64,000 nt of DNA from Elusimicrobiota bacterium. Lineage in GTDB: Bacteria; Elusimicrobiota; Elusimicrobia; FEN-1173. A program made the position numbers and the translations under genes. The notes under the pieces were generated by a model that worked only from the letters and a program-made list of their open reading frames with translations, was not told the DNA's origin and made no database searches. Shown in pieces: positions 5,137 through 52,047 of the stretch; the first letter of the stretch is position 1; each line of letters starts with the position of its first letter. The stretch spans positions 51,275-115,274 of the forward strand of contig JAYRXX010000025.1 of NCBI GenBank assembly GCA_041917295.1, given 5' to 3'.

Positions 5137-5253
5137 AAAGATCGTCTTGAGCGGTTCGTTTGGAGGGTGTGTGTGGGGGGGGGGGGGCCGAGTTTACAGG
5201 ATTGTTACAATTTTTTCTCTGTTTCTTTCGAACGGAATCTCTATAATCTAGGT

Positions 5254-8200
5254 ATGGAAGACAGTGCGCCTATCTTGAGGGGCTCGGCTCCCCTGGGGGG
5301 GCTCCTCGGAAGAGGGGTTCGGCTGTTGTTGGCTGCCCTCCTTTTTTCGGGAGACATGGGGGCGTGGGCCGCCCGAGACCTCTGGACAGAACGTCGAAAA
5401 GCGGCTTTTTCCGTTCGTGGCGGGTTGCGTTCCCCCGCCGCGGACCGGTTGGCGGCCTCGTTTCCGTCCGTCGATCCGGGGTTTGTCCCGGCGGAGGCGT
5501 CGGGCATGCCCGCCTGGTTGGCGAACACGGTGGGGCTTTATGCCGATGTGGGAACCTATGTTCCTCCCCCGCCGGGCCAACGGCGCGTGTTGATTCATGT
5601 TCAGGACCTTCACGCGGTGGAGGAGGCCCAACGCAACATCGCCTCTCTCCTGGACCAACTGGCGGGATCGGTCGGAGGAACCGACGGTCTGTACGTGGGG
5701 TTGGAAGGAGCGGCCGGACCATTTCGGACCGACGATTTTCGCGCGTTGGCGGCGCCGTCGGTGATCCGGCGGGTTTCGGACCGGTTTTTGCGGGCCGGAC
5801 TGATTTCGGGGCCCGAATTTTTTAGTTTGACCACCGAACGCCCGTTTCGTCTGTGGGGCACGGAAGATCCCGCCGCCTACGAAGCCAACGTCCGCGCGTT
5901 GACCCAAACCTTCGCCACCCAACCCCAAGACGACGCCCGCTTGGCCCACGCCCGCCGTCGGATGGACAAGTTAAAAAAGGCCCTCTACCCCCCCGCCCTG
6001 CTTGCCCTGGACGAGGCCCAAACCGCCTACGAATCCGGCCAACTCCCGTTGACGGGGTACGTCCAAAAGATTTCTGAAAATGTTTCGGACCGGGAGATGG
6101 GCCCTTCCCTGGTCCGGTATCGGGAAGCGTTGCGGTTGGAATCGGACCTCTCTCTCAAAAGCGTCGAGGCGGACCAACAACGGCTTCTGGAACATCTTGC
6201 GCCTCTCTTGACCGATCTTGAACGCCGCCGTTTAACCGAGGCCGGGTTGGCTTGCCGGTTGGGCCGGGCACGGCACGGTTCCTTTTTGACCGTCCTAAAA
6301 GAAATATGTCGACAACGCCGGGTCGACCTGGCCGGGTATCCCCACTTTTTGGCTCACAACGCCTATGTTGAAAAGGTGCAAGGATTGAGGGGGGAAGAGT
6401 TGATGGGGGATGTGGAACGTTTGGCTGATCGTCAAATGCAAGTTTTGGCGGGGGACGCCGCCGTTGTTAAAGCCATCGAGCTGGATCGTGACCTAAAACG
6501 GATCGAAAAACTGAACCGCTTTTCGATGGTCCCGGACGAATTTGGGAGGTGGACCCAACGTCGGTCAGAGGTGGCCCGATGGTCTCAACGGGGGGCCGAT
6601 TTGGCCCGGTATGCGGAAAGGTCTGTCCGGGTTCCCGGTTCTGAAGGTGTTCAACGGGCCAAGGGGAAGGAACCCAAGGGGGCCGACCCTTGGCCGGACC
6701 TCTTGGACGTGGCCGACCGGCACGCCGGTTTTCACCGGTGGGCCGAAACGCGCAATCGTTCGCTGGTTAAAAACCTGTTGGCCCGTTGGACCGACGACCG
6801 TCCGGCGGTGTTGGTGGCGGGCGGGTTCCAAGCAGAGGGTCTTCGCGCCGTCGCCCGGTCCGAAGGGGTGGGTTACATCTCCCTTGTCCCACGGGTGATC
6901 CACACCAAACAGTTTCCGCCGCCCCTGGAATCCTTTCGATCTAAAGGAAAAACAATCAAGTGGCGGTTGCCCGGCCCTTCCTCTCTCCAAAACCGCCTTC
7001 GAACCGCGGGTTCGGAGATTGGTTCACGAGAGGTTGTTTCAGTGGATAATGGGGAAGTTCCCTTTCCCACCGCGTTTATTGCCACGGTGTATGCCACGCT
7101 GGTCATGGATCCGGAATATCAAACTCCCTTGTCCCCGGGGGCCGTTGAGAAATTGCGGGAGGTGGCACTTACCCGGTTTGGGGTCGACTTGGAGCAAGTC
7201 GGTTCGGCCAACGAGAAAGGGGGCTTGGTGTTGACGGTCCGATTTCCGTCGGTACCCGAAGTCCCCGCCTACACCGTGACGATAAGTCGGGGTGGGCCCA
7301 ACGGGGAGGCCGGCGATTTCTGGGTGGGGATTGAATCGGTTTCTTCCTGGCGGCAAGCGGTCGAATTTATTCGCCAGGCGGACAATTTGATTGCATCCCT
7401 GGGCCCCGCGATTCGGTTGTGGGCCACTCGGGTTTTGCCCCACGCGATCGATCAAACGGGTTTGGCGTTTCGAAAAACGGCCGTATTTCTTATTCCGACG
7501 GTTCGTTCAGCCGGTGGATCGGGCCTCTTGAATTATTTCGGGGGACTGAAGGATCGGTGGACCCAATCGATCCTCTTGGCCCGGGAACGGGAAGACGTGC
7601 TCAAGGCGCTCGCCCAACCGCTTGACGATCGCAACGCCCGGTTGGCCGCGTTGGCCGCAAACCACACCAGGGTCATGCCCTCGGCATGGGTTCAATCTTT
7701 ATCCGAAGCGATCAATGGCCACAAGATCGGGACTCTAGAGATTGGGGTGGACAAAAAGAGCCTTCTGGTTTCCTTGGGTCAGGGTCAGTCCACCACCCGA
7801 TTGCGGTTGCATGTGACGTCGGCCAGGGCCCTCTACGAGCGACCCGCCGACTATTCTCCATACCAACTCGCCCGACGTTCAGACGGGACCATCGACGTGT
7901 ATTTGGCGGAACCGGTGGTCTCCAGCCCGGAACGGTTGTTGCCCTTGGTGATCGGTCGTTTGTTGCGTGAAATCAACGGCCAACCGTCGGGGAACCACCG
8001 CCTGGAAGAACTTCAGATTTTGTTGGGGATGTGGGAATCGTTGGCCCAGTACTCCATCAACAGCTGGGCCAGTTATGTTTTGGGAATGAAATTGGAACCG
8101 GCAATCGGGGTTCCTTCTGCGGTTCAACGCCAGGCCTGGCAACCCGGCGCTGTCCTTGATTTTGTTAACAATACGGAAGAGCAACTGGGTGGGGCCAACA

Positions 8201-9255
8201 CCGGCTTGTTTGTTTTGACCGGGGCTTCCCCAAATTCGGAAGCGGATTCTTTGGCTTCAACGGTAACCATGGACGCAGTGGTCAACGTACTTGCGGGTCT
8301 TGGTTGGGACACTGAGAGGGCCGGGGCCACGGCCAAGGGGTTGGTCGAAAATCGGCTGAATCAACGTATTCAGCTGATTGAACAGTTTCAAACCTTGGCG
8401 GATCAACGGGGTTTATTGACGCGCCTTTCCTGGCGGGTGAACCGTCAAGAATTGTCCGCCAGCGGAGCGAACCTGGTGATCGATTTGCTCAAGCACGTGG
8501 GTACGTCCCAAGGGCAAATCATGGCGCTGAACGGGACCCCTTACGAGACGGGACTCCAAACTCAAATGACGGACCAGTTTCCCTATCTGGCGCAAACCTT
8601 GCTGGGAATCATGAAAATGGCCGGGCAACCCCTGGACCGGGCGAGCGTGGAAAATCAGCGCGCTCGGTTGGCGGACATGTGGACTGTTTACGCGGAACAT
8701 TTTTCCATCGGATACGGCCAACTGTCTTCGGTTTACTCCCCTCCGGCGGCCTCCGCCACGGTGGCCCAAGCCGAGGGAGTCCTCGTCGGAGTGTTCCACC
8801 TGGCCCCCCTTGGCGATGAGAAAGCCCTCGACCGGGTTCTCGATGTGTTGTTGAGCCGTGACTTGAGCCGGTTTAAAGCAACGCTGTTGGTCCCGGAAAA
8901 TGGAGACGATTTGAAGGATTCTCTCGTCAAGGCGCTTGAAAATCGCTTGCGGGTACGGGAAATGACCGACTCTCAAACGGCGGGCGTCACAACATTTCTG
9001 GCCGGAGAAAATTTGTTGGTTCTCCCCGCGGGGGCTGAAAGGATTCAGTTGGATCTGGTGTTTCAGCAAATTACCCAACGCTGGGGAAACGTCACCCATG
9101 CGGACGTTTACACCGTCAACGCGGCTGTTTTTGATATGACCGTGGCGACCCTGCTCTCTTGGAATATCTACGAAAACGGCGTTCTGGTTTCCAATTCCGT
9201 CAAATCGGCTTTGGCGGAACAGCGGATCCGCGCTTTCATACAGCAACAAGCTTAA
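5254..9255 (+). CDS. Large (1334 aa) hypothetical secreted or membrane-anchored protein of unknown function
   Basis: Long uninterrupted ORF in a 62% GC genome with a hydrophobic N-terminal segment (VRLLLAALLFSG). The ATG at 5254 lies directly after a TATAAT hexamer, whereas the track ORF starts at 5167 inside a poly-G tract. No Walker, HExxH or other catalytic motif was recognised. Confidence 0.6.
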   Translation: MEDSAPILRGSAPLGGLLGRGVRLLLAALLFSGDMGAWAARDLWTERRKAAFSVRGGLRSPAADRLAASFPSVDPGFVPAEASGMPAWLANTVGLYADVGTYVPPPPGQRRVLIHVQDLHAVEEAQRNIASLLDQLAGSVGGTDGLYVGLEGAAGPFRTDDFRALAAPSVIRRVSDRFLRAGLISGPEFFSLTTERPFRLWGTEDPAAYEANVRALTQTFATQPQDDARLAHARRRMDKLKKALYPPALLALDEAQTAYESGQLPLTGYVQKISENVSDREMGPSLVRYREALRLESDLSLKSVEADQQRLLEHLAPLLTDLERRRLTEAGLACRLGRARHGSFLTVLKEICRQRRVDLAGYPHFLAHNAYVEKVQGLRGEELMGDVERLADRQMQVLAGDAAVVKAIELDRDLKRIEKLNRFSMVPDEFGRWTQRRSEVARWSQRGADLARYAERSVRVPGSEGVQRAKGKEPKGADPWPDLLDVADRHAGFHRWAETRNRSLVKNLLARWTDDRPAVLVAGGFQAEGLRAVARSEGVGYISLVPRVIHTKQFPPPLESFRSKGKTIKWRLPGPSSLQNRLRTAGSEIGSREVVSVDNGEVPFPTAFIATVYATLVMDPEYQTPLSPGAVEKLREVALTRFGVDLEQVGSANEKGGLVLTVRFPSVPEVPAYTVTISRGGPNGEAGDFWVGIESVSSWRQAVEFIRQADNLIASLGPAIRLWATRVLPHAIDQTGLAFRKTAVFLIPTVRSAGGSGLLNYFGGLKDRWTQSILLAREREDVLKALAQPLDDRNARLAALAANHTRVMPSAWVQSLSEAINGHKIGTLEIGVDKKSLLVSLGQGQSTTRLRLHVTSARALYERPADYSPYQLARRSDGTIDVYLAEPVVSSPERLLPLVIGRLLREINGQPSGNHRLEELQILLGMWESLAQYSINSWASYVLGMKLEPAIGVPSAVQRQAWQPGAVLDFVNNTEEQLGGANTGLFVLTGASPNSEADSLASTVTMDAVVNVLAGLGWDTERAGATAKGLVENRLNQRIQLIEQFQTLADQRGLLTRLSWRVNRQELSASGANLVIDLLKHVGTSQGQIMALNGTPYETGLQTQMTDQFPYLAQTLLGIMKMAGQPLDRASVENQRARLADMWTVYAEHFSIGYGQLSSVYSPPAASATVAQAEGVLVGVFHLAPLGDEKALDRVLDVLLSRDLSRFKATLLVPENGDDLKDSLVKALENRLRVREMTDSQTAGVTTFLAGENLLVLPAGAERIQLDLVFQQITQRWGNVTHADVYTVNAAVFDMTVATLLSWNIYENGVLVSNSVKSALAEQRIRAFIQQQA

Positions 9256-9420
9256 CCCGAAATTCCCAGTTGGATCGCGGGATTCGACGGAAAATTCGGG
9301 CCTTTTTTCTTCACAAAAAAGTTTGTCCGTAGTCCCTGCTACGGCCTGCACTTTTTTGTTCGTAAAAAGGCCCGCCTTTTCCTTCTCGGTCCTCGCGCCC
9401 AACTGGGAATTCCGGGTTAA
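9254..9420. repeat. MITE-like palindromic repeat, copy A (~167 bp)
   Basis: The element termini AACCCGAAATTCCCAGTTGG and CCAACTGGGAATTCCGGGTT form ~20-bp terminal inverted repeats. The whole element is about 95% identical to the reverse complement of 20953-21120. Confidence 0.8.
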
Positions 9421-9456
9421 AAAAACTACAATGCCGCAAAAACAGGGGGAACCAAC

Positions 9457-10536
9457 ATGACCACGCACGCCATCAGTTTGATCCCGGGAGACGGAACCGG
9501 ACCGGAAATTTCCGCGACGGTCCAAAAGGTTTTGGAGGCCACCGGCGTTAAAATTGCCTGGGATGTGGTGGAGGCGGGCGCCGACGTGGTGGAAAAATAC
9601 GGGACGCCTCTGCCCGACAACGTTTTGGCCTCGATTCGAAAAAACCGCGTCGCCTTGAAAGGTCCTCTGACCACGCCCATCGGCACCGGGTTTCGATCGG
9701 TCAACGTGGCCCTTCGTAAAGAGCTGGATTTGTATGCCTGTTTGCGGCCGTGCAAGTCGTATGCGGGTGTTCGGTCCCGGTATTCAAACATCGATTTGGT
9801 GGTGGTGCGGGAAAACACCGAAGATTTGTATGCGGGCGTGGAATACGCCCCCGACTCGAAAGAGGCCGACGAAATCATCGGCTGGTCAAAGGGGAAAATT
9901 GTGCCCCACGCGGCCATTTCCATTAAACCCATTTCCCGCGCCGGAACCGAGCGGATCATGACCTACGCCTTTGATTACGCGGTCCAGCACAAACGGCGCA
10001 AGGTTACCGCGGTGACCAAAGCCAATATCATGAAATTTACCGACGGCCTGTTTTTTGACACAGCCCGCGAGGTGGCCAAACGCTACGCCGGAAAAGTGGA
10101 ATACGAAGAACGGTTGATCGACAATATGTGCATGCAGTTGGTGCAAAAGCCCGAGCTTTACGACGTGATCGCGTTGCCGAACCTGTACGGCGACATTTTG
10201 TCGGACTTGTGCGCCGGGCTGATCGGGGGGTTGGGCATTGCGCCGGGGGCCAACATCGGCCAGGGGATTTCGCTGTTCGAGCCCGTCCACGGGTCGGCCC
10301 CGAAATACAAAGGGATGAACAAGGTGAACCCCACGGCGATGCTGTTGTCGTCGGTTTTGATGCTGGAACACATCGGCGAAAGAGCCGCCGCGGTGAAATT
10401 GGAATCCGCCATCGCCGCCGTGATGGCCGAAGGCAAAAACGTGACTTACGATTTGAAACCCCGCCCCGACGATCCCACCGCCGTGGGAACCCGCGAGATG
10501 GGCGAGGCGATTGTTCAAAAAATGAGGAGTCTGTGA
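9457..10536 (+). CDS. Isocitrate/isopropylmalate dehydrogenase family protein, probably NAD-dependent isocitrate dehydrogenase
   Basis: 359 aa; N-terminal [11 protein letters not shown]; [27 protein letters not shown] metal- and substrate-binding signature of beta-decarboxylating dehydrogenases. Confidence 0.8.
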
Positions 10537-11027
10537 TGACCGACGAACTGTCGTGCGTGATCGTGAAACCCGACGGGGTCGGGAAAGCCGTGGTGGGGAA
10601 AATTTTCGCGCGCCTGGAAGCCGAGGGGTTTCGGTTGACCGCGGCGCGGATGGTGCGTCCCACCCCGGACCTGTTGGGCGGTTTTTACGCGGAACACAAA
10701 GGCAAACCGTTTTACGAAGGGTTGTTGAAATTTATTTCGTCGGGGCCCATCGTGGTGACGGCGTGGCGGGGGGCGGAGGTGGTTCGAAAAATCCGGGCGT
10801 TGATCGGGTCCACCAACCCGGCCGAGGCCGCCGCCGGAACGTTCCGTGCCCAATGGGGCACCGACAACCGGCGCAACCTGATCCACGCTTCGGATTCTCC
10901 CGCGTCGGGATTGCGGGAGACCGCTTTCTTCTTTACGCCGGAGGAACTGGCGCCGTACGATCCGATGCTCTGGTCCCGCCCCGAATACGCCCCGCCCGCA
11001 CCGGTTCTTACTCAGAAGATCACGTAA
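10536..11027 (+). CDS. ndk: Nucleoside diphosphate kinase
   Basis: [16 protein letters not shown]-terminus and NLIHASDS active-site His motif. The ATG overlaps the stop of the upstream dehydrogenase gene (ATGA). The longer track ORF from 10128 is a frame artefact. There is a ~30-aa C-terminal extension. Confidence 0.88.
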   Translation: MTDELSCVIVKPDGVGKAVVGKIFARLEAEGFRLTAARMVRPTPDLLGGFYAEHKGKPFYEGLLKFISSGPIVVTAWRGAEVVRKIRALIGSTNPAEAAAGTFRAQWGTDNRRNLIHASDSPASGLRETAFFFTPEELAPYDPMLWSRPEYAPPAPVLTQKIT

Positions 11028-11120
11028 ACCCCGGCGGTAGCGCGGTCAGCTTTCGCCGGGATGACGGAATTGTTGAAAAAGACACCGTGGAACCCTGGGA
11101 CTTATTGGAGCTTCGTGGGT

Positions 11121-11411
11121 CTACGCGCTTTCTTGCATGTAGTCAACAACAATGCCGATGATCTTTCGAACCGCTTCGTTGCAGGATTTGAATTCGATTC
11201 GGTCCAAAACGGCGGATCCGTGTTTTCGAAGAAGGTCACTGATGAGGGCGTGAATAAAGGATTGGGTGGCCGCCTCCACGCCCGCGAAGTCCAACACGAC
11301 GGTGTCCCCGGATTCCAGGGCGGGAAGAATTTCACCCAGACGCAGGGCTCTGGCCGCGTCCTTGTTTTCGGCGAAACTTCCCGCGTGGGCGAGCAGGCGG
11401 ATCTGTTTCAT
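11121..11411 (-). CDS. STAS-like small protein (anti-sigma-antagonist-like or DUF4325-like fold)
   Basis: 96 aa with a VVLDFAGVEAATQSFIHALI core typical of STAS or anti-anti-sigma-like domains. Its start overlaps the stop of the upstream HATPase gene (ATGA at 11408-11411). Confidence 0.55.
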   Translation of the reverse strand: MKQIRLLAHAGSFAENKDAARALRLGEILPALESGDTVVLDFAGVEAATQSFIHALISDLLRKHGSAVLDRIEFKSCNEAVRKIIGIVVDYMQESA

Positions 11412-12370
11412 GTGAACCGGGGTTGTTTAAACCGTTCCCGTCTTCGTTCGCGTATGGCGGATGAGTATGTGTCTCGTATCGCGTCCAGAAGTTTGGAGAA
11501 CGCCTCGGTTTGACCAAGCGATATATCGACCCCGACGACGGTCCCCGGCCAATAGGGCATGTCGGATTCGGTGGAATGCCGGTCTTTGAACGGATCGGCG
11601 CGAAGCGAGGGGTTGCGGCCGGTCCTTTTTTTTAAAAGTTTGTAAAACCCATTTCCGCTGTAGATCACGAAAAAATCCCGATTCACGCTCGCGATGGATT
11701 TGACGAAAAACAATCCCGCGCCGGCATTTTGATCGGTGCCTCCTTCCCGCGCGGTGGCGCCCGTAATTCCCGGGGTTAAGGCCAAGCGAATGGCCTCCAA
11801 ATCCGATGGGGCCCTGTGGGAGCGGTTGATGGTGGTTTTGATGCCAACGCCCGTGTCGGCAATCCCGATGCGAAGGGTGTGGCTTTTCTTGTAGTACTGG
11901 GCGCAGAGAAACGCGCCGTGGGGAGATTCGGCATGCTCGATCACGTTTCGCACAAGTTCGCTGACAATGTATCCCAGGGTTTTCGAGGGATCGGGGTCGA
12001 GGTGCAGCAACGGGATCATCTCTGTAATGAAAGCGCTCAGCTCATTGGAAGTCCGAATTTGCGTCAGGGGGATGAACCGCCCCGCTGGTTCATGTTCCTG
12101 CAAGACGATGTCCGAGTCGATCCCAAGAGTTCGCATGAGGCCCATGCGCACAAAATAGCCTGATGACGCCGCCTCAAATTTCCCACAAAAGATATTTTCG
12201 GGTTTAACGCGTTGTCCAAGGGCGGCCAACATGGATAGAACCATCGGATGAACGGACATCCATCGGTCGTTTGCCGTGATTTCCAGGATGTCTGGTTGTG
12301 AAGGATCAAAACCGCGTAAAAAGGGATCAATGTTCCCAAGGAATGCGCTGTTTGGGATGTGTATTTTCAT
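11408..12370 (-). CDS. Histidine-kinase-like ATPase (HATPase_c, GHKL) protein with an unrecognised ~145-aa N-terminal domain
   Basis: N-box ELVRNVIEHAE, G1 box IGIADTGVGI and G2-like GATAREGG...GAGLFF in the central region, like RsbW/SpoIIAB-type Ser kinases but with extra N- and C-terminal regions. GC content is visibly lower than in the neighbouring genes. Confidence 0.65.
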   Translation of the reverse strand: MKIHIPNSAFLGNIDPFLRGFDPSQPDILEITANDRWMSVHPMVLSMLAALGQRVKPENIFCGKFEAASSGYFVRMGLMRTLGIDSDIVLQEHEPAGRFIPLTQIRTSNELSAFITEMIPLLHLDPDPSKTLGYIVSELVRNVIEHAESPHGAFLCAQYYKKSHTLRIGIADTGVGIKTTINRSHRAPSDLEAIRLALTPGITGATAREGGTDQNAGAGLFFVKSIASVNRDFFVIYSGNGFYKLLKKRTGRNPSLRADPFKDRHSTESDMPYWPGTVVGVDISLGQTEAFSKLLDAIRDTYSSAIRERRRERFKQPRFT

Positions 12371-12437
12371 TATAACGAATTATACCGGGATTCCTGGGTA
12401 TTGTCAATACACCTAAATTCCCGGTATTTATTTGTTA

Positions 12438-12460
12438 ATTATCGGTCTTGGCCGAGACCG
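12438..12460 (-). terminator. Hairpin downstream of nfu (minus strand)
   Basis: CGGTCT-TGGCCGA-GACCG inverted repeat just 3' of the nfu stop in an AT-rich spacer. It has no clear U-tract, so it is only a putative terminator. Confidence 0.3.
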
Positions 12461-12485
12461 GTAAAATGGATGGATTCTCCCCGCG

Positions 12486-13025
12486 TTAAACCGTAACCAC
12501 CCGGATGTTGGGATCCAGCATCCGCTGAAGCAGGTTTTGGATGGCGAACAAGGTCCCCGCGGACGCGCTGGGACAACTGCCGCAGGCGCCTTGGTAATGA
12601 ACCGTTAACAGCCCGTCTTGATAATCCAATATTTCCAGTCCGCCGCCGTCGCCGGCCAAGGCGGGGCGAATGTTTTCATCAATGATTTGTTCGATGCGGG
12701 CGCGGATGTCGTCATTGGAGGCGGCGCCGGTCGAGGCGGGGGCGGAGGGTTTGACCGCTTCGCCGCGCGTTTCGATGGCGGATTTAAGCCGCGGTTCGAG
12801 TTGGTCCCAATCGGCCTCGGGCCGTTTGGTGACCGTCACGAACCGGTCGAGGATGAACACCGAGGCCACGGGGCCCGCGGCGAACAGGGCTTCGCTCAGA
12901 GCGTGGGTTTTGGCGTCGGCGGCGTTTTCAAAAGACAGGGCCCCCCTCTCCACCAACCGATTGTCCGTAATAAATTTAAGCGCATCCGGGTTGGGCGTTC
13001 CTTGAACCTCGACAACTTTGACCAT
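12486..13025 (-). CDS. NFU1/NfuA-type Fe-S cluster assembly protein with Nfu_N and NifU C-terminal domains
   Basis: C-terminal CGSCPSASAGTL (CxxC NifU motif) and an N-terminal Nfu_N-like domain (MVKVVEVQGTPNPDALKF). Confidence 0.8.
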   Translation of the reverse strand: MVKVVEVQGTPNPDALKFITDNRLVERGALSFENAADAKTHALSEALFAAGPVASVFILDRFVTVTKRPEADWDQLEPRLKSAIETRGEAVKPSAPASTGAASNDDIRARIEQIIDENIRPALAGDGGGLEILDYQDGLLTVHYQGACGSCPSASAGTLFAIQNLLQRMLDPNIRVVTV

Positions 13026-13302
13026 GGGGGGCCTCCTTTCGACGAAGATACATTATACCAAGCGCGGGAGGGGGTGTCCACGGTGCGCGTTTGGACGGAC
13101 CCGGAAAAAATGGCCTTGACAGAATGGCGGGGGCGGGTATAATAACGCGCGCCAGAACTTGGATGGGGCCGAGGATCGGTCCCGATGGCCAGAAAACGAT
13201 TGATTCGAAAAATCATCCACACACGACCGTTCGGCATGATACCCTGGGGTCCCGTCGGGAATCCAGGAATAATGCCCGGCCGGAACCTCTAAGGAGTCCT
13301 CC

Positions 13303-14682
13303 ATGGACCAGCATTCCCACACCTCGCAACCCACTTCTTCCGCCTCGCCGGCCCCCGTGCCGCCCGCGGCGCCGGCGACGTTGCCCGCCGCCAATGGGTC
13401 GCCGTCGTCCAGTCCCAAAATTTTGAAAGCCGCCATGCTTTCCCGCGCGCCCATGGGTGAACTGATGAAATTGGCGTCGGATTTGAAAGTGTCCATCGCT
13501 GGCATGCGCCGCCAGGAAATCATCGCCCGGTTGCTGGAAGCCCACGCCCGGGAATCGGGTGAACTGGTGCGCCAAGGGGTTTTGGAAATTCTGCAGGACG
13601 GGTTTGGGTTCCTGCGCAGTCCGGACTACAACTATCTGTCGGGCCCCGACGACATTTACATCAGCCCGTCCCAAATCAAACGCTTTTCGTTGCGCAAAGG
13701 CGACACCGTTGCCGGCCAGGTCCGGCCGCCCAAAGATCAAGAGCGGTTTTTCGCGCTTCTTCAGGTCCACACCATCAACGGCGATCCCGTGGACAAGGCC
13801 CTTCGGCGGCCGTTGTTCGACAACCTCACGCCGCTGTATCCCCAGAACCGCCTGAACCTTGAAACCAAAAAAGACGAAATCAACACCCGCGTCTTGAACT
13901 TGGTGGCGCCCATCGGCAAAGGCCAGCGCGGGTTGATCGTGGCCGCGCCGCGTACCGGCAAAACCATTTTCCTTCAAAAAATCGCCAACGCCATTTCGGA
14001 AAACCATCCGGAAGTGGACATGATCGTTCTTCTGATTGACGAACGGCCGGAAGAAGTGACCGACATGCAACGGTCCGTGAAAGGGGAAGTCATTAGTTCC
14101 ACGTTCGATGAGCCCGCCGACCGGCACGTGCAGGTGGCCGAAATGGTTATCGAAAAGGCCAAGCGCCAAACCGAGTGCGGCAAAGACGTGGTCATCTTAT
14201 TGGACTCGATCACGCGGTTGGCCCGGGCTTACAACACGGTTACCCCGTCCTCGGGACGGGTGTTGTCGGGCGGGTTGGATTCGAACGCCCTCCAGCGGCC
14301 CAAACGGTTTTTCGGCGCCGCCCGCAACATCGAAGAGGGAGGCAGTTTGACCATCGTGGCCACGGCCCTGGTCGAAACGGGCAGTCGCATGGACGACGTG
14401 ATCTTTGAAGAATTCAAGGGCACCGGCAATATGGAAGTTTATTTGGACCGGAAATTGGCCGATCGGCGTGTGTTCCCGGCCATCGACATGCACCGCTCGG
14501 GGACCCGCAAAGAAGAGCTGTTGCTGACCCAAGACGAGCTGAACAAGGTGTGGGTGTTGCGCAAAGTGCTGTCGTCCATGACCCCGGTGGACGCCATGGA
14601 ACTGTTGATTGAAAAAGTATCGGCCACGAAATCGAACAAAGATTTTTTGCGGTCCATGGAAGTGTCCAGCATCAATAAATAG
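13303..14682 (+). CDS. rho: Transcription termination factor Rho with an S/P/A-rich N-terminal extension
   Basis: [12 protein letters not shown] and SPSQIRRF-like RNA-binding motifs; P-loop APPKAGKT-like ([11 protein letters not shown]); 459 aa including a ~50-aa low-complexity N-terminus. Confidence 0.92.
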
Positions 14683-14696
14683 CGGCAGGGGGGCGA

Positions 14697-15725
14697 ATGG
14701 GCAAACGCAAGTCGGTTTTGCCGCAAACAGCGGTGCCGTCCACGGAGGGGGGGGAAACCCGCCCGAACCGCCGGGCCGGCCTGTTTCGGCCCAAACGGCC
14801 GACGGATGTGTTGACGGCCGGAATTGTCGCGGCTGTGGTGGTGTCGGTGGCCGCGTTGGGGGGCGCGTCGTTTCAATTGCCTTCCGGCGGGGCGGCGTTT
14901 TCGGAGTCGTTTTTGCTTTCGGTTGGTTATCCCGCCCCGGGTCCAACCCCGGACCTTTTTCAAACCCTCGGTAAACTCCAGCGGGTTATCGTTGGTCAAT
15001 ACGAAGTCCGTCCCAAAGACACCCTGGCGTCTTTGTCCAAAACCTTTGGGTCCGGGCCAGACTTTTTGCGCAGTACCAACCGGCTCCATTCGGCCCAGTT
15101 AAGTCCCGGAAAAACCATCCTTGTCCACAATGGGCTGGGAATGTTGTATCAGGTTCGGGAAAACAAAGGCCGCTCTGAAACCCTCCACGACATCGCCAAA
15201 CGTTACAACCTGTCTCCGGTCCAATTGGCCCGGGCGAACCAATTGCCGGGCGTCTCTCTTCTCTCCGACCAGGGGCTGGAACCGGGTCGGGTTTTGTTTT
15301 TGCCATCGGTGCGGTTGCGGTTTACCGATTATTTGATGCCGGTGGCCTGGTCGCGCGGACAGCGGATGACCTCGTCGGGGTTCGGATACCGCCGCCATCC
15401 CGTCTTGAAAACCCGCCGTTTTCACCAGGGAGTGGATTTTCCCCGTCCCCCGGGATCGCCTGTCCGCTCGGTCCGGGAAGGGGTGGTCATTTTTGCCGGC
15501 TGGCGGGGTTCCTACGGCCGTTTGGTCATTCTGAAACATCCCGGCGGAATGCGGACATGGTACGGACATCTTTCCGCTATTACCGTTGAACCAGGCCAAC
15601 GGGTGGCCGCCGGCGTTTTGATCGGCCGCGTGGGCAGTTCCGGATTAACCACCGGGCCGCACCTCCATTTTGAGGTCCGCGACCGCTACGGCCGCGCCTT
15701 AAATCCCAAAAAGTTCTTATTTTAA
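14697..15725 (+). CDS. LysM-domain M23 family metallopeptidase (murein endopeptidase-like)
   Basis: Two LysM repeats (YEVRPKDTLASLSKTF; YQVRENKGRSETLHDIAKRYNL) and the M23 catalytic motifs HQGVDF and GPHLHFEV. Confidence 0.85.
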   Translation: MGKRKSVLPQTAVPSTEGGETRPNRRAGLFRPKRPTDVLTAGIVAAVVVSVAALGGASFQLPSGGAAFSESFLLSVGYPAPGPTPDLFQTLGKLQRVIVGQYEVRPKDTLASLSKTFGSGPDFLRSTNRLHSAQLSPGKTILVHNGLGMLYQVRENKGRSETLHDIAKRYNLSPVQLARANQLPGVSLLSDQGLEPGRVLFLPSVRLRFTDYLMPVAWSRGQRMTSSGFGYRRHPVLKTRRFHQGVDFPRPPGSPVRSVREGVVIFAGWRGSYGRLVILKHPGGMRTWYGHLSAITVEPGQRVAAGVLIGRVGSSGLTTGPHLHFEVRDRYGRALNPKKFLF

Positions 15726-15809
15726 GATAGAATATCAAGAACCATCAGGCCGCGGTTGCGGCTATTCACGTCAGTTGGATCCATTTAAAAATAAAAGAGA
15801 GAGGGTGTC

Positions 15810-16196
15810 ATGAAAGAAGGGATTCATCCCACATATCAACAGATCACCGTGACCTGCGCTTGCGGAAAATCGTGGATCACCGGATCGACAGCCAAACAGA
15901 TTCGTTTGGAAATTTGTTCCAATTGCCATCCGTTTTACACCGGACGCCAAAAGTTGATGGACACGGCGGGTCGTGTGGAACGGTTTGAAAAGAGATACGC
16001 CTCCACCGGCGGAAAAACCGTTGAGCGCAAACCGGTCGTCAAAAAAGCTGCCCCCGCGCCCAAACCCGCCGCCAAAAAGGCCGTGAAGGTGCTCACCAGC
16101 ACCCCGAAACCGGGCACCAAAGAAAAACCGGGCAAATCCCCCAAATCGGCTAAACCGGCCAAGACCGGAAAACCCGAAAAAGCGCCTGCGAAGTAA
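15810..16196 (+). CDS. rpmE: 50S ribosomal protein L31 (zinc-binding type) with a Lys/Pro/Ala-rich C-terminal tail
   Basis: [10 protein letters not shown]-terminus; CxC...CxxC zinc ligands; ~60-aa KPAAKK-type extension. Confidence 0.85.
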
Positions 16197-16274
16197 CCCC
16201 CTCCTTCATTCCCGACTTCCTTTGAGCCGGCTCGTCCGTAAAGACGTGCCGGCCAAAGGCGGATCGGTGACTCC

Positions 16275-17345
16275 ATGAATCCCAAATTAGAACAGTTGGA
16301 AAGCCGGTTGACCGTTCTCAACGAACGGTTAGCGGATCCGTCTGTTCAGAGGTCCCCCGAATCTCATGAGCTGGCTCGGGAATTTAAACGGTTGGATCCC
16401 ATCGTCCAAAAAATCCGCGTTCTTCGCCGGGTGGAATCCGAAATTCATCAGGCCGAAAGCCTGCTTTCCTCCTCCGAACCGGACTTGAAAGCGCTGGCGG
16501 AAGAAGAACTGAAAAATTTACGGAGCCAATCGGTCGGTCTGGCGGCGGAGTTGGACGAATTTTTGATTCCCCGCGATCCCCGGGACGGGCGGGACGTGAT
16601 CATCGAAATACGCGCCGGAACCGGCGGCGACGAAGCGGCCCTGTTCGGAGGGGACCTTTACCGGATGTATTCCCGCTACGCCGCTGAGCTGGGGTTCGCG
16701 GTGGAACCCTACGACTCGTCCCCGTCCGGGATGGGCGGGTTTAAAGAAATTGTTTTCGGGGTTCGGGGAAACGGGGCCTATTCCCGGTTTAAGTATGAAA
16801 GCGGCGTTCACCGCGTTCAACGGGTTCCGGACACGGAGGCGTCGGGCCGCATCCACACCTCCACGGCCACCGTGGCGGTGTTGCCGGAAGCCGACGAGGT
16901 GGAAGTGTCCATCAACCCCGCGGACCTGCGTATTGACACCTACCGGGCCTCCGGCGCCGGGGGCCAGCACGTGAACAAAACCGAGTCCGCCATTCGGATC
17001 ACCCATCTTCCCTCGGGCATTGTGGTGGCCTGCCAAGAAGAACGCAGTCAAATGAAAAACCGCGCCCGGGCCTTTTCGATGCTCCGCGCCAAACTGCACC
17101 AGGCCGAACAGGAACGCCTGGAGTCCGAACGGCGGGACCTGCGCCGAAGCCAGGTGGGAACCGGCGAACGCACTGAAAAAATCCGCACCTACAATTTTCC
17201 CCAAGACCGCGTGACCGATCACCGCATCAACCAAAACTTCCATAATTTGCCGGGCATATTGGAGGGCCGTCTGGGCCCACTTCACGCCGCGCTGTGGCAA
17301 GCGGAAAAGGCCGAACGCATGGCTCAGGCCGCGTCGGTTTCGTGA
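16275..17345 (+). CDS. prfA: Peptide chain release factor 1
   Basis: GGQ motif (SGAGGQHVNKTESA) and a PxT-context RF1 domain; 356 aa. Confidence 0.95.
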   Translation: MNPKLEQLESRLTVLNERLADPSVQRSPESHELAREFKRLDPIVQKIRVLRRVESEIHQAESLLSSSEPDLKALAEEELKNLRSQSVGLAAELDEFLIPRDPRDGRDVIIEIRAGTGGDEAALFGGDLYRMYSRYAAELGFAVEPYDSSPSGMGGFKEIVFGVRGNGAYSRFKYESGVHRVQRVPDTEASGRIHTSTATVAVLPEADEVEVSINPADLRIDTYRASGAGGQHVNKTESAIRITHLPSGIVVACQEERSQMKNRARAFSMLRAKLHQAEQERLESERRDLRRSQVGTGERTEKIRTYNFPQDRVTDHRINQNFHNLPGILEGRLGPLHAALWQAEKAERMAQAASVS

Positions 17346-18196
17346 CCACGGTCGCGGCGCCCCCGGCCACGGCGGCGGAGGCGATGGCGTTGGCGGCGGA
17401 GCGCCTCAAAGGGGCGGGTCTGCCGAACGCGCAGTTTGAGGCCAAGCAGTTGGTGGCCCGGTGTTTGGGCCTGGCGCCGGCCCGGCTCGATTTTCAGAGC
17501 CATCGGCCGTGGACGCCCGCCGACGACGCTCTTTTGAACGTGTGGCTTGGCCGGCGGGAAAACCGGGTTCCGTTGGCGTATGTGTTGGGCGAATGGGATT
17601 TTATGGATTTCACATTAACGGTGACACCTGACGTGTTGATCCCCCGGCCGGAAACGGAAGAGCTGTTTGCCGCGGCGGCCTCCGCCGTCGGAGACAAGGC
17701 AGTCGCCGTGGCCGATGTGGGCACCGGCGCGGGCGGACTGGCGTTGGCGGCGGCGCGGCGCTGGCCGTCGGCGAAGGTCACGGCCGTGGACGTTTCGGCC
17801 GCCGCCCTGGCGGTGGCCCGTTGGAACGCCCGCCGTTGGGGATTGGAAAATCAAATTCGCTTTGAGCAACATGATTTAATTTCTGGAGAGGCCGAATACG
17901 ATTTGGTGTTAGCCAATCTTCCTTACGTGGCGACATTCGAGTTGAATGGACTGGAACCGGAGTTGGCGTGGGAACCCCGGTTGGCTCTCGACGGCGGCGG
18001 GGACGGGTTGGATGTGGTGCGGCGGTGTGTTCCGTTGGCGCGGCGCGCGTTGCGTCCGGGGGGACAACTGTGGCTTGAGGTGGGGCACGCCCACGGGAGC
18101 CGGACCGAGGCCCTGTTGGCTCACGCGGGCTTTCAGTCGGTTCAAGCGCATCCCGATTTTGCGGGAATTCGGCGGTTTGTTGGAGGAACCCGATGA
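17342..18196 (+). CDS. prmC: Release-factor glutamine N5-methyltransferase
   Basis: Class I MTase motif DVGTGAGGLALA and NLPY (NPPY variant) substrate motif. A GTG start overlaps the prfA stop (GTGA); the track ORF begins earlier, at 17294. Confidence 0.8.
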   Translation: MTTVAAPPATAAEAMALAAERLKGAGLPNAQFEAKQLVARCLGLAPARLDFQSHRPWTPADDALLNVWLGRRENRVPLAYVLGEWDFMDFTLTVTPDVLIPRPETEELFAAAASAVGDKAVAVADVGTGAGGLALAAARRWPSAKVTAVDVSAAALAVARWNARRWGLENQIRFEQHDLISGEAEYDLVLANLPYVATFELNGLEPELAWEPRLALDGGGDGLDVVRRCVPLARRALRPGGQLWLEVGHAHGSRTEALLAHAGFQSVQAHPDFAGIRRFVGGTR

Positions 18197-19452
18197 TTCA
18201 ATTGGACAGTTTTGTGATCAAAGGCGGAAAACGGTTGACGGGGTCTGTTCGCGTGTCTGGGTCCAAAAACGCCGCCCTCCCCTGTTTGTTCGCCACGTTG
18301 TTAACAGATCACGAGGTGGTCCTCGACAATGTGCCCGATTTGCAGGACATTCGGACGGCGGTCCGGTTGTTGGAACGGTTGGGCAAACGCGTCACCGTCC
18401 AGTCGGGCCGGGTAACCGTTCGCAAGAAAGGGGTTTTGAGAGAACGGGCGCCCTACGATTTGGTTCGACGGATGCGGGCCAGCGCGGTGGTGATGGGGCC
18501 GCTTTTGGCCCGGTTGGGGAAAGCGGATGTGTCCCTTCCCGGCGGATGCGCCATCGGGGCACGGCCCATCAACTTCCATCTGAAAGCGTTCGAGGCCATG
18601 GGCGCGAAAATCACCGTTCACGAAGGCTACATTCTGGCCCAGGGACGAATGAAAGGGTGCCGTGTGAAACTGCCGTTTGCCAGCGTGGGCGCCACGGAAA
18701 ATATTTTGATGGCGGCGTCGTTGGCCCAGGGTCGAACTGTTTTGGACAACGCGGCCCGCGAACCCGAAATCACCGATCTGGCCAACCTGTTGACGGCCAT
18801 GGGCGCGCGCATCAAGGGCGCGGGGACCACGCGGATCGTCATTGACGGGGTGCCGTCTTTGGGCGGGGCCCATCACCGGGTTATTCCGGACCGCATCGAA
18901 GCGGGCACGTTGCTGATCGCGGCCGCCATGACGCGCGGACGGATCAAATTGATCGACGCGGATCCATCCCATTTGGGGGCCGTCATCGAGGCTCTTCGTC
19001 GGGCTGGACTCGCCGTTTCCCAAACGGCCAACACCTTGGAAGCGGCTTGGGTGCGCCCTTTAAAGCCGGTCGCTGTTAAAACGCGCGTGTACCCGGGGTT
19101 CCCGACGGACATGCAGGCTCAATGGATGGCGTTGATGTCGGTGACCCGGGGCCGCAGCGTGATCCAAGAAGATATTTTTGAAAACCGGTTTCTGCATGCC
19201 CAGGAATTGGTGCGGATGGGGGCGCGTATCGACGTGCGGGGAGCCCGGGCGGCCATTGAAGGCGTTCCCCGGTTGTCCGGCTGTCCGTTGATGGTGTCGG
19301 ACCTGCGGGCGGGGGCGGCTCTGGTTTTGGCCGGGCTGGTGGCCCGGGGGCGGACACGGGTTCTTCGCGTTTATCACTTGGACCGGGGCTACGAGCGGTT
19401 GGAAAAAAAATTGCGTCTCCTGGGAGCCGACATCCGGCGGGTTCCCCAATGA
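18193..19452 (+). CDS. murA: UDP-N-acetylglucosamine 1-carboxyvinyltransferase
   Basis: N-terminus MIQLDSFVIKGGKRLTGSVRVSGSKNAALP is diagnostic of MurA; 419 aa; ATGA overlap with prmC. Confidence 0.95.
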   Translation: MIQLDSFVIKGGKRLTGSVRVSGSKNAALPCLFATLLTDHEVVLDNVPDLQDIRTAVRLLERLGKRVTVQSGRVTVRKKGVLRERAPYDLVRRMRASAVVMGPLLARLGKADVSLPGGCAIGARPINFHLKAFEAMGAKITVHEGYILAQGRMKGCRVKLPFASVGATENILMAASLAQGRTVLDNAAREPEITDLANLLTAMGARIKGAGTTRIVIDGVPSLGGAHHRVIPDRIEAGTLLIAAAMTRGRIKLIDADPSHLGAVIEALRRAGLAVSQTANTLEAAWVRPLKPVAVKTRVYPGFPTDMQAQWMALMSVTRGRSVIQEDIFENRFLHAQELVRMGARIDVRGARAAIEGVPRLSGCPLMVSDLRAGAALVLAGLVARGRTRVLRVYHLDRGYERLEKKLRLLGADIRRVPQ

Positions 19453-20936
19453 CCCGAGGTCGGGTTTTTGTAAGCGCCGTTGGCATAGTCCTGGTGTCGG
19501 CGGGCTTGATGGCGGGAGAAGCCGTTGGTCCGGAATCCGACCCCGCTTCTTTGACGGCGGGGGTGGAACCGGTGTTGATTTCCACCTCACCGACGGAGAT
19601 GGAATCGGCGGGGTTACCCCCCGCGGGGCTGGACGGGGAAACGGCCGACCGGTCGGAACCTCTTGCCCCCTGGCTGGCCAAATCCGAAAAATATTTTGAG
19701 CGGGGTCTGGCGGCGGAATCGGCCGGAGACCTTCGCGCCGCTCGCCGCCACTACGCCCGCGCACTGAAAGTGTATTTGGATAACGCCGACGATGTCGCGG
19801 TGATGGACATGAAAACCACCATCGCCACCGTTTTGAATGGGGCCGAAACCCAGCGGTTCTCAGAATCGGATTCCCAGAAAAAAGAAGTCGGCGGTTTAGA
19901 CGCGATGACGGGGCCCCAACTCAAAAAGGTGGACGCCGCGGGGGTTCATCCGGTGGGATCGACGCGGTCTTACGTGATCCACATCGACGCCAACGACCCG
20001 CTGGTGAAAAAATACGTGGCGCTGTACACCGGCTCACTGAGAGATCGAACCCAGGCGGCGTTCGACCGCATGGGAAAATACATGGACATGGTGTCTCGGA
20101 CCATCGAGGAAGAACGGATGCCCCGGGAACTTATCTATTTGCCGGTTGTGGAAAGCGAGTATCACCTTTTCGCGGTGTCCAAGGCGGGCGCGGTGGGCCT
20201 GTGGCAATTTATGCCGACGACGGCCAAATACGCCGGCCTGAAAGTGAATTACTGGGTGGACGAACGGCGGGACCCCGACAAATCCACGCGCGCGGCCATG
20301 AAAACGTTGAAATCGCTTTACGACTGGTTTGACGATTGGCATTTGGCGTTGGCGGCGTACAACCGGGGAATGTACGGCATCCAGCGGGACTTGGAATTTA
20401 CCCGATCGACGGATTTCACGCTGTTGTCCAAACGCCAGGGAATTCCCCTGGAAACCGAGCAGTACGTGCCGAAGCTGATGGCCCTGGTTCTGATTGGGGA
20501 CAACGCGGCGGAATACGGGTTTCGGCCGCCGCGGGCATCGACCGCTTCCGCACCGGACACGGTGGTCCTTAACCGGCCGTTGGATCTTAAAGTGGCGGCC
20601 GCGTGCGCGGGTGTGTCTGAAACGGTGATCCGGGAACTGAACCCGTCCGTTCGGTTATGGGTGACGCCTTCCAATGAACCCCACTTTGCGTTCAAAGTTC
20701 CGGCGGGATCCAAGGATCGGTTCCAAGCGGCCCTGGCCCAGGTGAAAGATTGGAACCCGTCACCGGGATTTGTTCGCTATACGGTCCAAAAAGGCGATAT
20801 TTTGGGCCGCATCGCTGCGCGGTTTCGCACCACCCCGGCGGCGATCCAGCGTGAAAATAACCTGGCCAGCGCCCATCGCTTGCGGCCCGGACAGGTTCTG
20901 GTGGTTCGGCCCGGCCGGGGGTTCAAAGGGGAATAG
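19449..20936 (+). CDS. Membrane-bound lytic murein transglycosylase (SLT domain) with a C-terminal LysM domain, MltD-like
   Basis: SLT motifs ESEYHLFAVSKAGAVGLWQFMPTTA and AYNRG; C-terminal LysM (YTVQKGDILGRIAARF); ATGA overlap with murA. Confidence 0.8.
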   Translation: MTRGRVFVSAVGIVLVSAGLMAGEAVGPESDPASLTAGVEPVLISTSPTEMESAGLPPAGLDGETADRSEPLAPWLAKSEKYFERGLAAESAGDLRAARRHYARALKVYLDNADDVAVMDMKTTIATVLNGAETQRFSESDSQKKEVGGLDAMTGPQLKKVDAAGVHPVGSTRSYVIHIDANDPLVKKYVALYTGSLRDRTQAAFDRMGKYMDMVSRTIEEERMPRELIYLPVVESEYHLFAVSKAGAVGLWQFMPTTAKYAGLKVNYWVDERRDPDKSTRAAMKTLKSLYDWFDDWHLALAAYNRGMYGIQRDLEFTRSTDFTLLSKRQGIPLETEQYVPKLMALVLIGDNAAEYGFRPPRASTASAPDTVVLNRPLDLKVAAACAGVSETVIRELNPSVRLWVTPSNEPHFAFKVPAGSKDRFQAALAQVKDWNPSPGFVRYTVQKGDILGRIAARFRTTPAAIQRENNLASAHRLRPGQVLVVRPGRGFKGE

Positions 20937-20952
20937 CCGGGTTTATTCTTGT

Positions 20953-21120
20953 TAACCCGGATTCCCCAGTTGGGCGCGAGGACCGAGACGGAAAAGGCGG
21001 GCCTTTTTACGAACAAAAAAGTGCAGGCCGTAGCGGGGACTACGGGCAAACTTTTTTGTGAAGAAAAAAGACCCGAATTTTCCGTCGAATCCCGCGATCC
21101 AACTGGGGAATTCGGGTTAA
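20953..21120. repeat. MITE-like palindromic repeat, copy B (inverted relative to copy A)
   Basis: Reverse complement matches 9254-9420 over about 165 bp with a handful of mismatches; same ~20-bp terminal inverted repeats. Confidence 0.8.
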
Positions 21121-21280
21121 TACATTTCGTCATGGGTCCGGTCGTAAAATAACTCTTGAAATATTATTGTTTCTGCTTATACTATAACGGAGACACCATG
21201 GCGAGCTCGTTCCTTGAACGGTTTCCTTTCCGGCCCCTTCTCCATGGAAGGGGGGGCCCTTCCCTTGCCCGGGGACACCC

Positions 21281-25211: not shown

Positions 25212-25369
25212 CCTTCCAGGATCGCGGCTTTCCTACCCCCGCCGCGACCCTTCCAGGCCGGCCCGATCACTGACGGGCCCTCTCGGCGGGCCCTTTTCCT
25301 CCCATAAGGTCGGCGTGATCGGGCGTTCAAGCCCCTCCTCCGGAATTAGAGGGGAAAGAACATCAAATC

Positions 25370-25455
25370 TGCCGGAGGGGGGACTTGAACCCCCACGCCG
25401 CCTAAGCGGCTTGAGATTTTGAGTCTCACGCGTCTGCCAATTTCGCCACCCCGGC
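25370..25455 (-). tRNA. tRNA-Leu(CAA), class II with a long variable arm
   Basis: Minus-strand sequence GCCGGGGTGGCG...TGAGA-CTCAAAA-TCTCA...GGGGGTTCAAGTCCCCCCTCCGGCA. Acceptor stem 7 bp with one G-U pair, anticodon loop CUCAAAA, T-loop TTCAAGT; 86 nt. Confidence 0.85.
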
Positions 25456-25518
25456 TTGAGGTCGTATTATCGCTTTTTCTTCGTTCCTTCGTCAATAACT
25501 GTTAAAATCAGTTTGCCC

Positions 25519-33265: not shown

Positions 33266-34021
33266 TTGCCGACAAAAAACAAGAACCCTCTTCTGCGTTG
33301 GGGAAAAAATAAGGCGCTGTTCGGCGTGGCGTTATTTATTGGAACGTCTTACGCCCGGGCGGTGGATCGTTATGTTCTGGATGTGCCCGCGTTTGTTATG
33401 GCGGGGGATCCAGACGTTTCGTTTTCGGTGACACCTCTGTCGGACGGTGTCGAAGACCCATCGTCTCACACCGTTCGCTTTGTCGATTTGCCCGCTGGAG
33501 TGAGCGTGGAGGCAACGGGTCCTTCGGCTCAGTCCTCGGTTCCCCAAACTCGGTATGTCGTTCAAGGGCGCCAGGATTTTAAGCTGGCCATACCCCCGTC
33601 TGTCGTTGAACGACGGATCTGGATCAAGGTTCAAAACACCGCCAAGGCCCGAATTCAAGGGGCGGGTGTTGTGAACGTTGAACGGCCTGTGCATCGATTT
33701 TCCATCACCCCATTGGGCAACAGCGCGCCCCGGGCGGGCGTTCCGTATCCGTTTCAGATCATGGCTTTCGACGAGGCGGGCGCGGTGGTGAGGTCCTTTC
33801 GGGGACCTGTTTCCTTCGCTGTGGCCCGGGGACAAGTGAGTCCGGCCGACTTGGCGGGGGATGCGTTTAAGAACGGCGCCGCCTCTGTTTCCGTCGAAAT
33901 TAGTGACGGGAACCCTTATGAAGCCAACCGGTTTTCCGTGTCGGCCCAGGAATCCTACGGTTCTCCGTCTCCTGCCCAAGGGACGGTGGACGTCTTGGTT
34001 CTTCCCAAGGAAAGCCCGTGA
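33266..34021 (+). CDS. Hypothetical secreted protein whose N-terminal module is paralogous to the N-terminus of the downstream giant protein
   Basis: Signal peptide; AVDRYVLDVPAFVMAGDPDVSFSVTPL aligns with AFDSYRITVPTDVMKGDPDVVFQVTPL of the next gene. Confidence 0.5.
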   Translation: MPTKNKNPLLRWGKNKALFGVALFIGTSYARAVDRYVLDVPAFVMAGDPDVSFSVTPLSDGVEDPSSHTVRFVDLPAGVSVEATGPSAQSSVPQTRYVVQGRQDFKLAIPPSVVERRIWIKVQNTAKARIQGAGVVNVERPVHRFSITPLGNSAPRAGVPYPFQIMAFDEAGAVVRSFRGPVSFAVARGQVSPADLAGDAFKNGAASVSVEISDGNPYEANRFSVSAQESYGSPSPAQGTVDVLVLPKESP

Positions 34022-51958: not shown

Positions 51959-52047
51959 CCGGCTCCCCACGCGTCGGGTATAATGATCCGGACGCAAGTT
52001 GACCCGCGGAATTTTTTCCCTTTCTGGTTTCCGGATTTAATTGTTTT

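Follow-up and report, generated by a model that had tools for sequence, protein, structure and literature searches.

Miniature inverted-repeat transposable elements (MITEs) of bacteria, such as Correia/NEMIS of Neisseria, ERIC of enterobacteria and RUP of Streptococcus, are 100-300 bp long, carry terminal inverted repeats (TIRs), are flanked by a short target-site duplication (TSD) and occur as many dispersed intergenic copies. Their transcripts can fold into long hairpins, and their insertions often lie just downstream of genes. Here we describe a new, palindromic family of this already well-known kind from the phylum Elusimicrobiota. It was recognised in a 64,000-nucleotide stretch of DNA from an Elusimicrobiota bacterium (contig JAYRXX010000025.1, positions 51,275 to 115,274; hereafter "the window"), where two oppositely oriented copies of a 161-bp element, copy A and copy B, bracket a block of housekeeping genes. 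Very probably, each copy represents an independent, recent insertion of a MITE that is moved in trans and belongs to an Elusimicrobiota element superfamily sharing the terminus CCCGRAWTYCCCAGTTGG. An initial annotation of the window had already suggested a non-autonomous miniature transposable element; this proposal is now backed by further copies, by TIRs conserved among them and by TSDs delimited at both sites through comparison of filled and empty loci. Like the bacterial MITEs just mentioned, the elements are small, non-coding and intergenic, with TIRs and a short target duplication. Unlike them, they reside in Elusimicrobiota, and they show no sequence similarity to Correia/NEMIS, ERIC or RUP (no Rfam or plasmid match); their TSD is 4 bp long (YTAA/TTAA) as opposed to the TA of Correia and RUP, and they are palindromic over their full length, with co-varying arms.

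Filled and empty sites of the two copies

Together with its flanking tetranucleotides, copy A (9252-9420) aligns with the reverse complement of copy B (20952-21120) over 169 bp at 95.3% identity, and in both BLAST and MAFFT alignments the homology stops at the outer TTAA on either side. A raw inverted-repeat search returned this as the single long pair in the window (9252-9428 / 20944-21120, 94% complementary, 11.5 kb apart). When the copies are compared on the same strand, identity is merely 71-74%, indicating that they are truly oppositely oriented, as initially annotated. Each consists of a non-coding 161-bp core, CCCG...CGGG, with TIRs of about 18-20 bp, flanked by a TTAA duplicate. The core of copy A occupies positions 9256-9416 of the + strand, left arm first, with TIRs at 9256-9273 and 9399-9416 and the duplicated TTAA at 9252-9255 and 9417-9420. 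That of copy B lies at 20956-21116 on the - strand, between TTAA sequences at 20952-20955 and 21117-21120 (left and right as read on the + strand). The terminus CCCGRAWTYCCCAGTTGG is present at both ends of both copies. The corresponding TIR pattern, TTAACCCGRAWTYCCCAGTTGG, has exactly four matches in the window, one at each of these four ends, against none expected from 100 shuffled sequences, so that the TIRs of about 20 bp described at the outset are real features of each copy. A search with an nhmmer profile of the family identified no third copy in the window.

The history of site B could be read from two closely related assemblies, L054 and L055 (Logan SRR14932559, SRR14932523). Both carry the same SLT transglycosylase gene and a GGDEF protein identical to that of the window, their flanks are 99.2% / 98.9% identical to the window's, and both lack copy B. 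Where the window reads ...ATTCTTG TTAA (161 bp) TTAA TACATTTCG, L054 and L055 read ...ATTCTTG TTAA TACATTTCG. In longer context, the empty site is ...GGGATTATTCTTG TTAA TACATTTCGTCATGG and the filled site ...GGGTTTATTCTTG TTAA (CCCGG...161 bp...TTCGGG) TTAA TACATTTCGTCATGG. The difference between filled and empty sites is thus exactly the 161-bp core plus one TTAA; the right-hand duplicate (21117-21120) follows from the same comparison. The SLT-GGDEF junction also occurs, again with no element, in L057 and L058. As the junction is common to these element-free loci and to L054 and L055, it must predate the insertion of copy B. In L045 and L048, the SLT gene is followed by glmM, and we considered whether copy B might mark a rearrangement breakpoint; this was ruled out by the presence of the SLT-GGDEF junction in the closer relatives L057 and L058, and in L054 and L055.

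At site A, empty counterparts were found in L059-L061, which share 85-93% nucleotide identity and the same gene content with the window. The window sequence ...caacaagcT TAA (CCCG...CGGG TTAA) AAAAACTACAAT corresponds in these loci to ...caacaagcC TAA AAAACTATAAT, and the BLAST breakpoints fall exactly at 9255|9420. The more distant relatives L045, L052, L053 and L048 are likewise empty. In the relatives at 85-93% identity, the stop codon of the upstream gene, TAA, directly abuts the leader of icd; a single (Y)TAA is likewise present at the empty sites of L045 and L052. In the window, the TAA at 9253-9255, within the left TTAA of copy A, is the stop codon of a 1362-amino acid (aa) open reading frame (ORF; 5167-9255); hence the stop of the upstream gene was kept or re-created by the target duplication. 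The initial placement of both copies in intergenic spacers therefore needs a correction: both do lie between genes, but the left TTAA of copy A holds the stop of the giant ORF. Copy B does follow the transglycosylase stop, beginning 15 nt past the SLT/LysM stop codon (20936).

Other strains add to the picture at site A. In a strain 98.5-99.2% identical to the window (L062), the contig terminates 30 nt into the element; it follows that this strain carries copy A. In L051, whose Icd is 88% identical, a decayed relative of about 85 nt (TAACCCAG...TTCCGGGTTAA; 8678-8770) occupies the site of copy A and may represent either an older, shared insertion or an independent insertion at a re-used hot spot. 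Copy A being common to several strains and copy B being polymorphic among strains 99% identical to one another, the two must result from independent events of different age; from this distribution, copy A would be the older and copy B the younger of the two. Empty sites as such fit both a site never occupied and one from which the element was precisely excised.

Related copies and their target flanks

A scan of genomes, one per species, with the pattern AACCCGRAWTYCCCAGTTGG yielded 37 loci. Twenty-nine of these lie in seven metagenome-assembled genomes (MAGs) of Elusimicrobia, with 13 in RIFCSPLOWO2_12_FULL_59_9 and 8 in NC_groundwater_1363; the latter two sets belong to subfamilies related to that of the window, where two copies occur in 64 kb. 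The remaining 8 loci, from outside Elusimicrobia, are about as many as we would expect by chance, with the exception of L018. There, in a MAG of Thermoanaerobaculales (Acidobacteriota), a 421-bp element (6837-7257) carries the same 18-bp TIR (CCCGGAATCCCCAGTTGG) at both ends, which suggests that the cognate transposase family crosses phyla.

Among the matches, full-length relatives of the window subfamily were found in L032 (3035-3203 and 181-341, 86% and 80% identical), L026 (1685-1850, 166 bp), L001 (5226-5471, 246 bp) and L009 (3142-3352, 211 bp). Those of L001 and L009, like one in L042 (404-660), where two elements lie within 650 bp, are longer variants with additional GC-rich stem-loop modules in each arm. 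Elements of 146 bp and 301 bp from other MAGs share the left terminus but have unrelated bodies. One solo left terminus, in L031 (7463-7800), adjoins a Fic/Doc-like pseudogene (motif HPFVDGNKR); examined as a possible end of an insertion sequence (IS), it was rejected as a truncated end beside this pseudogene. Viral contigs and plasmids gave no match to the element.

A metagenome scan with the right arm identified near-identical copies in other contexts: L041 (98% identical to copy A), L040 (94%, flanked by TTAA/TTAA) and L042. Copy A is thus nearer to L041 than to copy B (95%), which excludes a local duplication. The initial annotation had reasoned that, were there only the two window copies, with no TSD or TIR conservation elsewhere, such a duplication would be the better explanation; copies in unrelated contexts and in several species dispose of this possibility, and the TIRs are kept in these other genomes as well. 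The same observations bear on the notion that the arrangement arose by local inverted duplication or is an artefact of assembly, that is, a misjoin at the repeat that leaves the orientation of the block arbitrary. From the window's own sample, an independent assembly of short reads does give the block as a separate contig of 11,591 bp that ends 30 nt inside each copy. Such ends are expected at multi-copy repeats and are uninformative on inversion. On the other side, the junctions between the giant ORF and icd and between the SLT and GGDEF genes are spanned, in the window's orientation, by empty-site contigs from conspecific strains and from relatives, and each copy has its own TSD. We thus regard a duplication or artefact as scarcely credible.

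The 4-mers flanking the elements match left and right: CTAA/CTAA in 12 elements and TTAA/TTAA in at least 5. Flanks of CTAG and TTAG are seen once each. Since the right flank is unconstrained by the scan pattern, this match is real evidence for a 4-bp duplication. The pattern begins with AA and forces the left flank to end in AA; consequently, the R position of the target is poorly sampled, and neither the last two target positions nor an orientation preference can be made the subject of a claim. A target specifically oriented as CTAA was considered and rejected for this reason: the pattern itself had kept out ...TAG flanks at that terminus, so that their apparent absence is an ascertainment bias. 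One copy, L007, is flanked by TTAA/TTAA within a MAG whose other copies have CTAA/CTAA.

Hairpin structure and candidate transposition mechanisms

The initial annotation had noted a quasi-palindromic body able to form a long hairpin. In folding runs, each copy indeed adopts a single long hairpin; the two strands of copy A give -92.1 and -100 kcal/mol (z-scores of -13.6 and -12.0), and none of 200 shuffled sequences folded equally well. Conservation of the fold was assessed in an alignment of seven copies; of the cells that make up the 59 predicted pairs, 96% are paired. Double-sided (compensatory) changes affect 14 of the 59 pairs, whereas shuffling the columns gives 4.3 +/- 1.5 and displacing the partner by 1-3 columns gives 0-4. 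Two such compensated changes, both in the terminal stem, distinguish the window copies from each other (AAATTCCCAG/CTGGGAATT vs AATTCCCCAG/CTGGGGAAT). Thus, the two arms co-evolve, and the whole element remains a near-perfect hairpin. The excess of G-T over A-C mismatches (28 to 6) is no firm sign of a strand-specific structure: three invariant pairs account for 21 of the 28, and prediction of the fold had used that same strand. Either mismatch correction within the palindrome or selection for a hairpin, of RNA or of single-stranded DNA, could underlie the covariation.

An extremely stable hairpin with co-varying pairs, located just past the stop codons of two genes, calls to mind a host-encoded structured signal (a terminator, an mRNA-stabilising hairpin or a small RNA) rather than mobile DNA. 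We consider this very improbable. Orthologous spacers of close relatives lack the element, and copy B is missing even in conspecific strains; a regulatory structure conserved in orthologous spacers, which the initial annotation had named as an outcome contrary to its proposal, is thereby excluded. Moreover, its copies occupy unrelated contexts, and they occur in either orientation with respect to the genes beside them. Searching Rfam at gathering thresholds returned nothing but two tRNAs, and relaxing the cutoff to E <= 1 added MIR6027 (33.6 bits vs 95) and 6S (16.3 bits vs 46.4), both sub-threshold matches of the kind generic long hairpins produce. Intrinsic terminators (a GC-rich stem followed by a T run) were predicted at no site in copy A and at two sites at copy B, one of them inside the element, which is not above shuffled expectation. 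No canonical promoter beyond chance was detected inside the element. A secondary, exapted effect of the element on transcripts is possible.

Hairpins also characterise elements that move as single-stranded DNA. Repetitive extragenic palindromic (REP) sequences are imperfect palindromes of 20-40 nt with a GTAG head, often arranged in arrays, and neither REP/BIME nor IS200/IS605-derived elements have long TIRs or a TSD. Like the present family, REP/BIME-RAYT and IS200/IS605 palindromic elements are intergenic repeats that form hairpins, and they rely on DNA secondary structure for their mobility. One could therefore envisage that the window copies are single-stranded DNA hairpins moved by an HUH/Y1 enzyme (IS200/IS605-derived or REP/RAYT) and inserted 3' of an undoubled YTAA, the right-hand YTAA being part of the element. 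Such a process would agree with the hairpin nature of the entire element, in which compensatory changes preserve the pairing, and with the conserved terminus of the 146-bp relatives, which forms a perfect stem-loop (GAATTCCCC-AGTT-GGGGAATTC); filled and empty TTAA sites fit insertion beside a fixed tetranucleotide equally well. We nonetheless judge it quite improbable, as the elements have clear TIRs of 18-20 bp, shared by subfamilies whose bodies are unrelated, and as left and right 4-mers change together in a single genome (L007 against its CTAA/CTAA companions), which a duplication explains directly. In addition, there is no GTAG-type REP motif, and the copies do not cluster in BIME-like arrays; nor, short of a systematic search, was a Y1 transposase noticed beside any of them. 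Identity with REP/BIME proper is ruled out, the unit being 161 bp long, with TIRs and TSD, and present as single copies. An integron attC site (RYYYAAC ... GTTRRRY) was rejected as well: the left end of copy A alone fits RYYYAAC, by chance, the CTAA-flanked relatives do not, and the intervening DNA consists of 11.5 kb of syntenic housekeeping genes.

If, as we favour, the repeats are MITEs mobilised in trans, then a DDE-type transposase would bind the TIRs of about 18 bp and make 4-bp staggered cuts at YTAR-like sites. The element inserts at a YTAA/TTAA tetranucleotide and duplicates it; the transposase would be encoded elsewhere in the genome or lost. Judged from the sequences of targets (mostly TTAA/CTAA) and termini (CCC...GGG), the data fit IS5-group or IS1380/piggyBac-like chemistry. 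Ends of the IS5 family usually begin with GG or GA (ISfinder), whereas the ends here are CCCG; neither an IS5-type transposase nor a full-length IS with these TIRs was found. The IS5 group generates a 4-bp TSD with the consensus 5'-YTAR-3', corresponding to CTAA, TTAA, TTAG and CTAG (PMC5009759). The flanks observed here, CTAA and TTAA and occasionally CTAG or TTAG, are similar. IS1380 elements have CC ends and 4-5-bp duplications (ISfinder); TTAA specificity of IS1380 members is not documented in the literature examined. This family is the prokaryotic relative of piggyBac (PMC5718144), an element that duplicates TTAA (rarely CTAA, TTAG or TCAA) and whose TIRs begin with CCC (PMC10813416). Given the TTAA-CCCG...CGGG-TTAA arrangement and the single TTAA at empty sites, piggyBac offers the closest architectural resemblance, in ends and target only; it differs in being eukaryotic, and no transposase was found here. 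The IS701 family also has a TSD of exactly 4 bp, with a terminal consensus, ---YACT-Y--YR (PMC2266710), unlike CCCGAATTCCCCAGTTGG. A more specific proposal is that the elements are non-autonomous partners of a bacterial piggyBac-like (IS1380-family) transposase, specific for TTAA/YTAA and capable of seamless excision, for which the whole-length hairpin would be needed, for instance as a hairpin or cruciform substrate, and would not be incidental. This we consider possible but rather unlikely.

Several observations weigh against the interpretation of the repeats as MITEs moved in trans. In agreement with the initial annotation, which had listed no cognate transposase, a Pfam scan of about 46 reading frames of the window revealed no transposase domain. 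Neither the window nor the loci examined yielded an autonomous element with matching TIRs. Besides the MITEs themselves, the window and the first 37 loci, the set covered at IS scale, contained no TIR pairs 40-600 bp apart and, among the terminus positions listed, no inverted pair at IS distance; an all-against-all BLASTP comparison of the ORFs of loci L001-L042 disclosed no multi-copy ORF. The source genome was not part of the scanned set. Furthermore, TTAA is itself palindromic, and the two window sites taken alone fit a 4-bp duplication as well as insertion 3' of a fixed tetranucleotide. Finally, covariation along the whole arms is not demanded by a simple DDE MITE model. As for the missing parent IS, MAGs often lose, or lack assembled, IS copies, and its absence is therefore weak evidence.

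The bracketed block and the significance of the family

The proteins closest to those of the window and all of the syntenic contigs derive from Elusimicrobia MAGs. The block between the copies (9457-20936, + strand), which is not part of the element, comprises icd, ndk, a DUF4325 gene, a HATPase-like gene and nfu (these three on the - strand), rho, a M23/LysM peptidase gene, rpmE, prfA, prmC, murA and the SLT-LysM transglycosylase gene. The gene list given initially (icd, ndk, rho, L31, prfA, prmC, murA and the SLT-LysM transglycosylase) was thus broadly right. Upstream of copy A lie polA, fpg, coaE and the 1362-aa ORF; two GGDEF genes follow copy B. Relative to polA-fpg-coaE, the 11.5-kb block has the same order and orientation in L045-L053, L057 and L059-L061. 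Order and orientation being constant in all relatives examined, no inversion is seen. Recombination between inverted repeats of 169 bp and 95% identity is possible in principle; of the recombination-mediated inversion envisaged initially, only this possibility is left, as none of the relatives examined has the inverted arrangement. That inverted copies bracket the housekeeping block is a matter of chance, the outcome of two separate events, and the arrangement is not a functional unit.

With respect to gene expression, both insertions look neutral: each element has the stop codon of the preceding gene on one side and the promoter or leader of the following gene on the other. Read-through transcripts may be affected. 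Six nucleotides downstream of copy A, a TACAAT/TATAAT box (9427-9432, + strand) may serve as the -10 element of icd. The box was not called by the promoter scan and is conserved in L045, L051, L052, L053 and L059-L061, indicating that copy A was inserted between the upstream stop codon and the icd leader. A promoter-like site for the GGDEF gene (TTGAAA, 16 nt, TATACT; 21156-21185, + strand), conserved in L057, is found 36 nt downstream of copy B.

The comparison of strains brought to light other variable features of the region. The 1362-aa ORF upstream of copy A and a 1998-aa ORF at 33922-39918 both lack Pfam domains; orthologues of the former measure 1217-1403 aa in relatives, and the gene is absent in the L048 lineage, where coaE abuts icd. 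The DUF4325/HATPase-like pair between ndk and nfu (11010-12486) is a strain-variable two-gene cassette, missing in L062 (98.5-99% identical) and in more distant relatives and present in L059-L061. These last three loci have an additional gene for a 152-aa prepilin-type (N_methyl) protein between nfu and rho, which is not found in the window. In L057, the tRNA-Leu region (25258-25474 in the window) is directly followed by the AcrB-type gene, which in the window occupies 62241-63998. This adjacency indicates that about 37 kb (approximately 25500-62240) were inserted or rearranged beside tRNA-Leu in the window lineage; the segment contains a RND efflux system, the 1998-aa ORF, a TPR protein, a P-type ATPase and accA, among others. 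Directly upstream of tRNA-Pro(tgg) (52344-52416), within positions 52045-52416, are two tandem 148-nt units, 98% identical. Each opens with the initial ~19 nt of the tRNA (CGGGGCGTAGCGCAGTTGG) and holds the anticodon-arm segment GCGCGCTTGGTTTGG, with an insert of ~90 nt in between. These units look like partial tRNA duplications or disrupted tRNA copies.

The findings establish no new biological principle, and an invertible housekeeping segment is unsupported by any observed inversion. What they provide is a well-documented MITE family for Elusimicrobiota, a nearly uncultivated phylum, with its ends, its TSD and its presence or absence at strain level all defined. Repeats of this type break short-read assemblies and, in the Logan assemblies, delimit contigs exactly; they are also open to being mistaken for regulatory RNAs or for rearrangement scars. 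The family is also a handle for finding the transposase responsible for its mobility, and the TTAA/CCC signature makes an IS1380/piggyBac-type enzyme worth seeking. If the elements did prove to be partners of such an enzyme, they would represent a prokaryotic version of the eukaryotic TTAA/CCC...GGG system.

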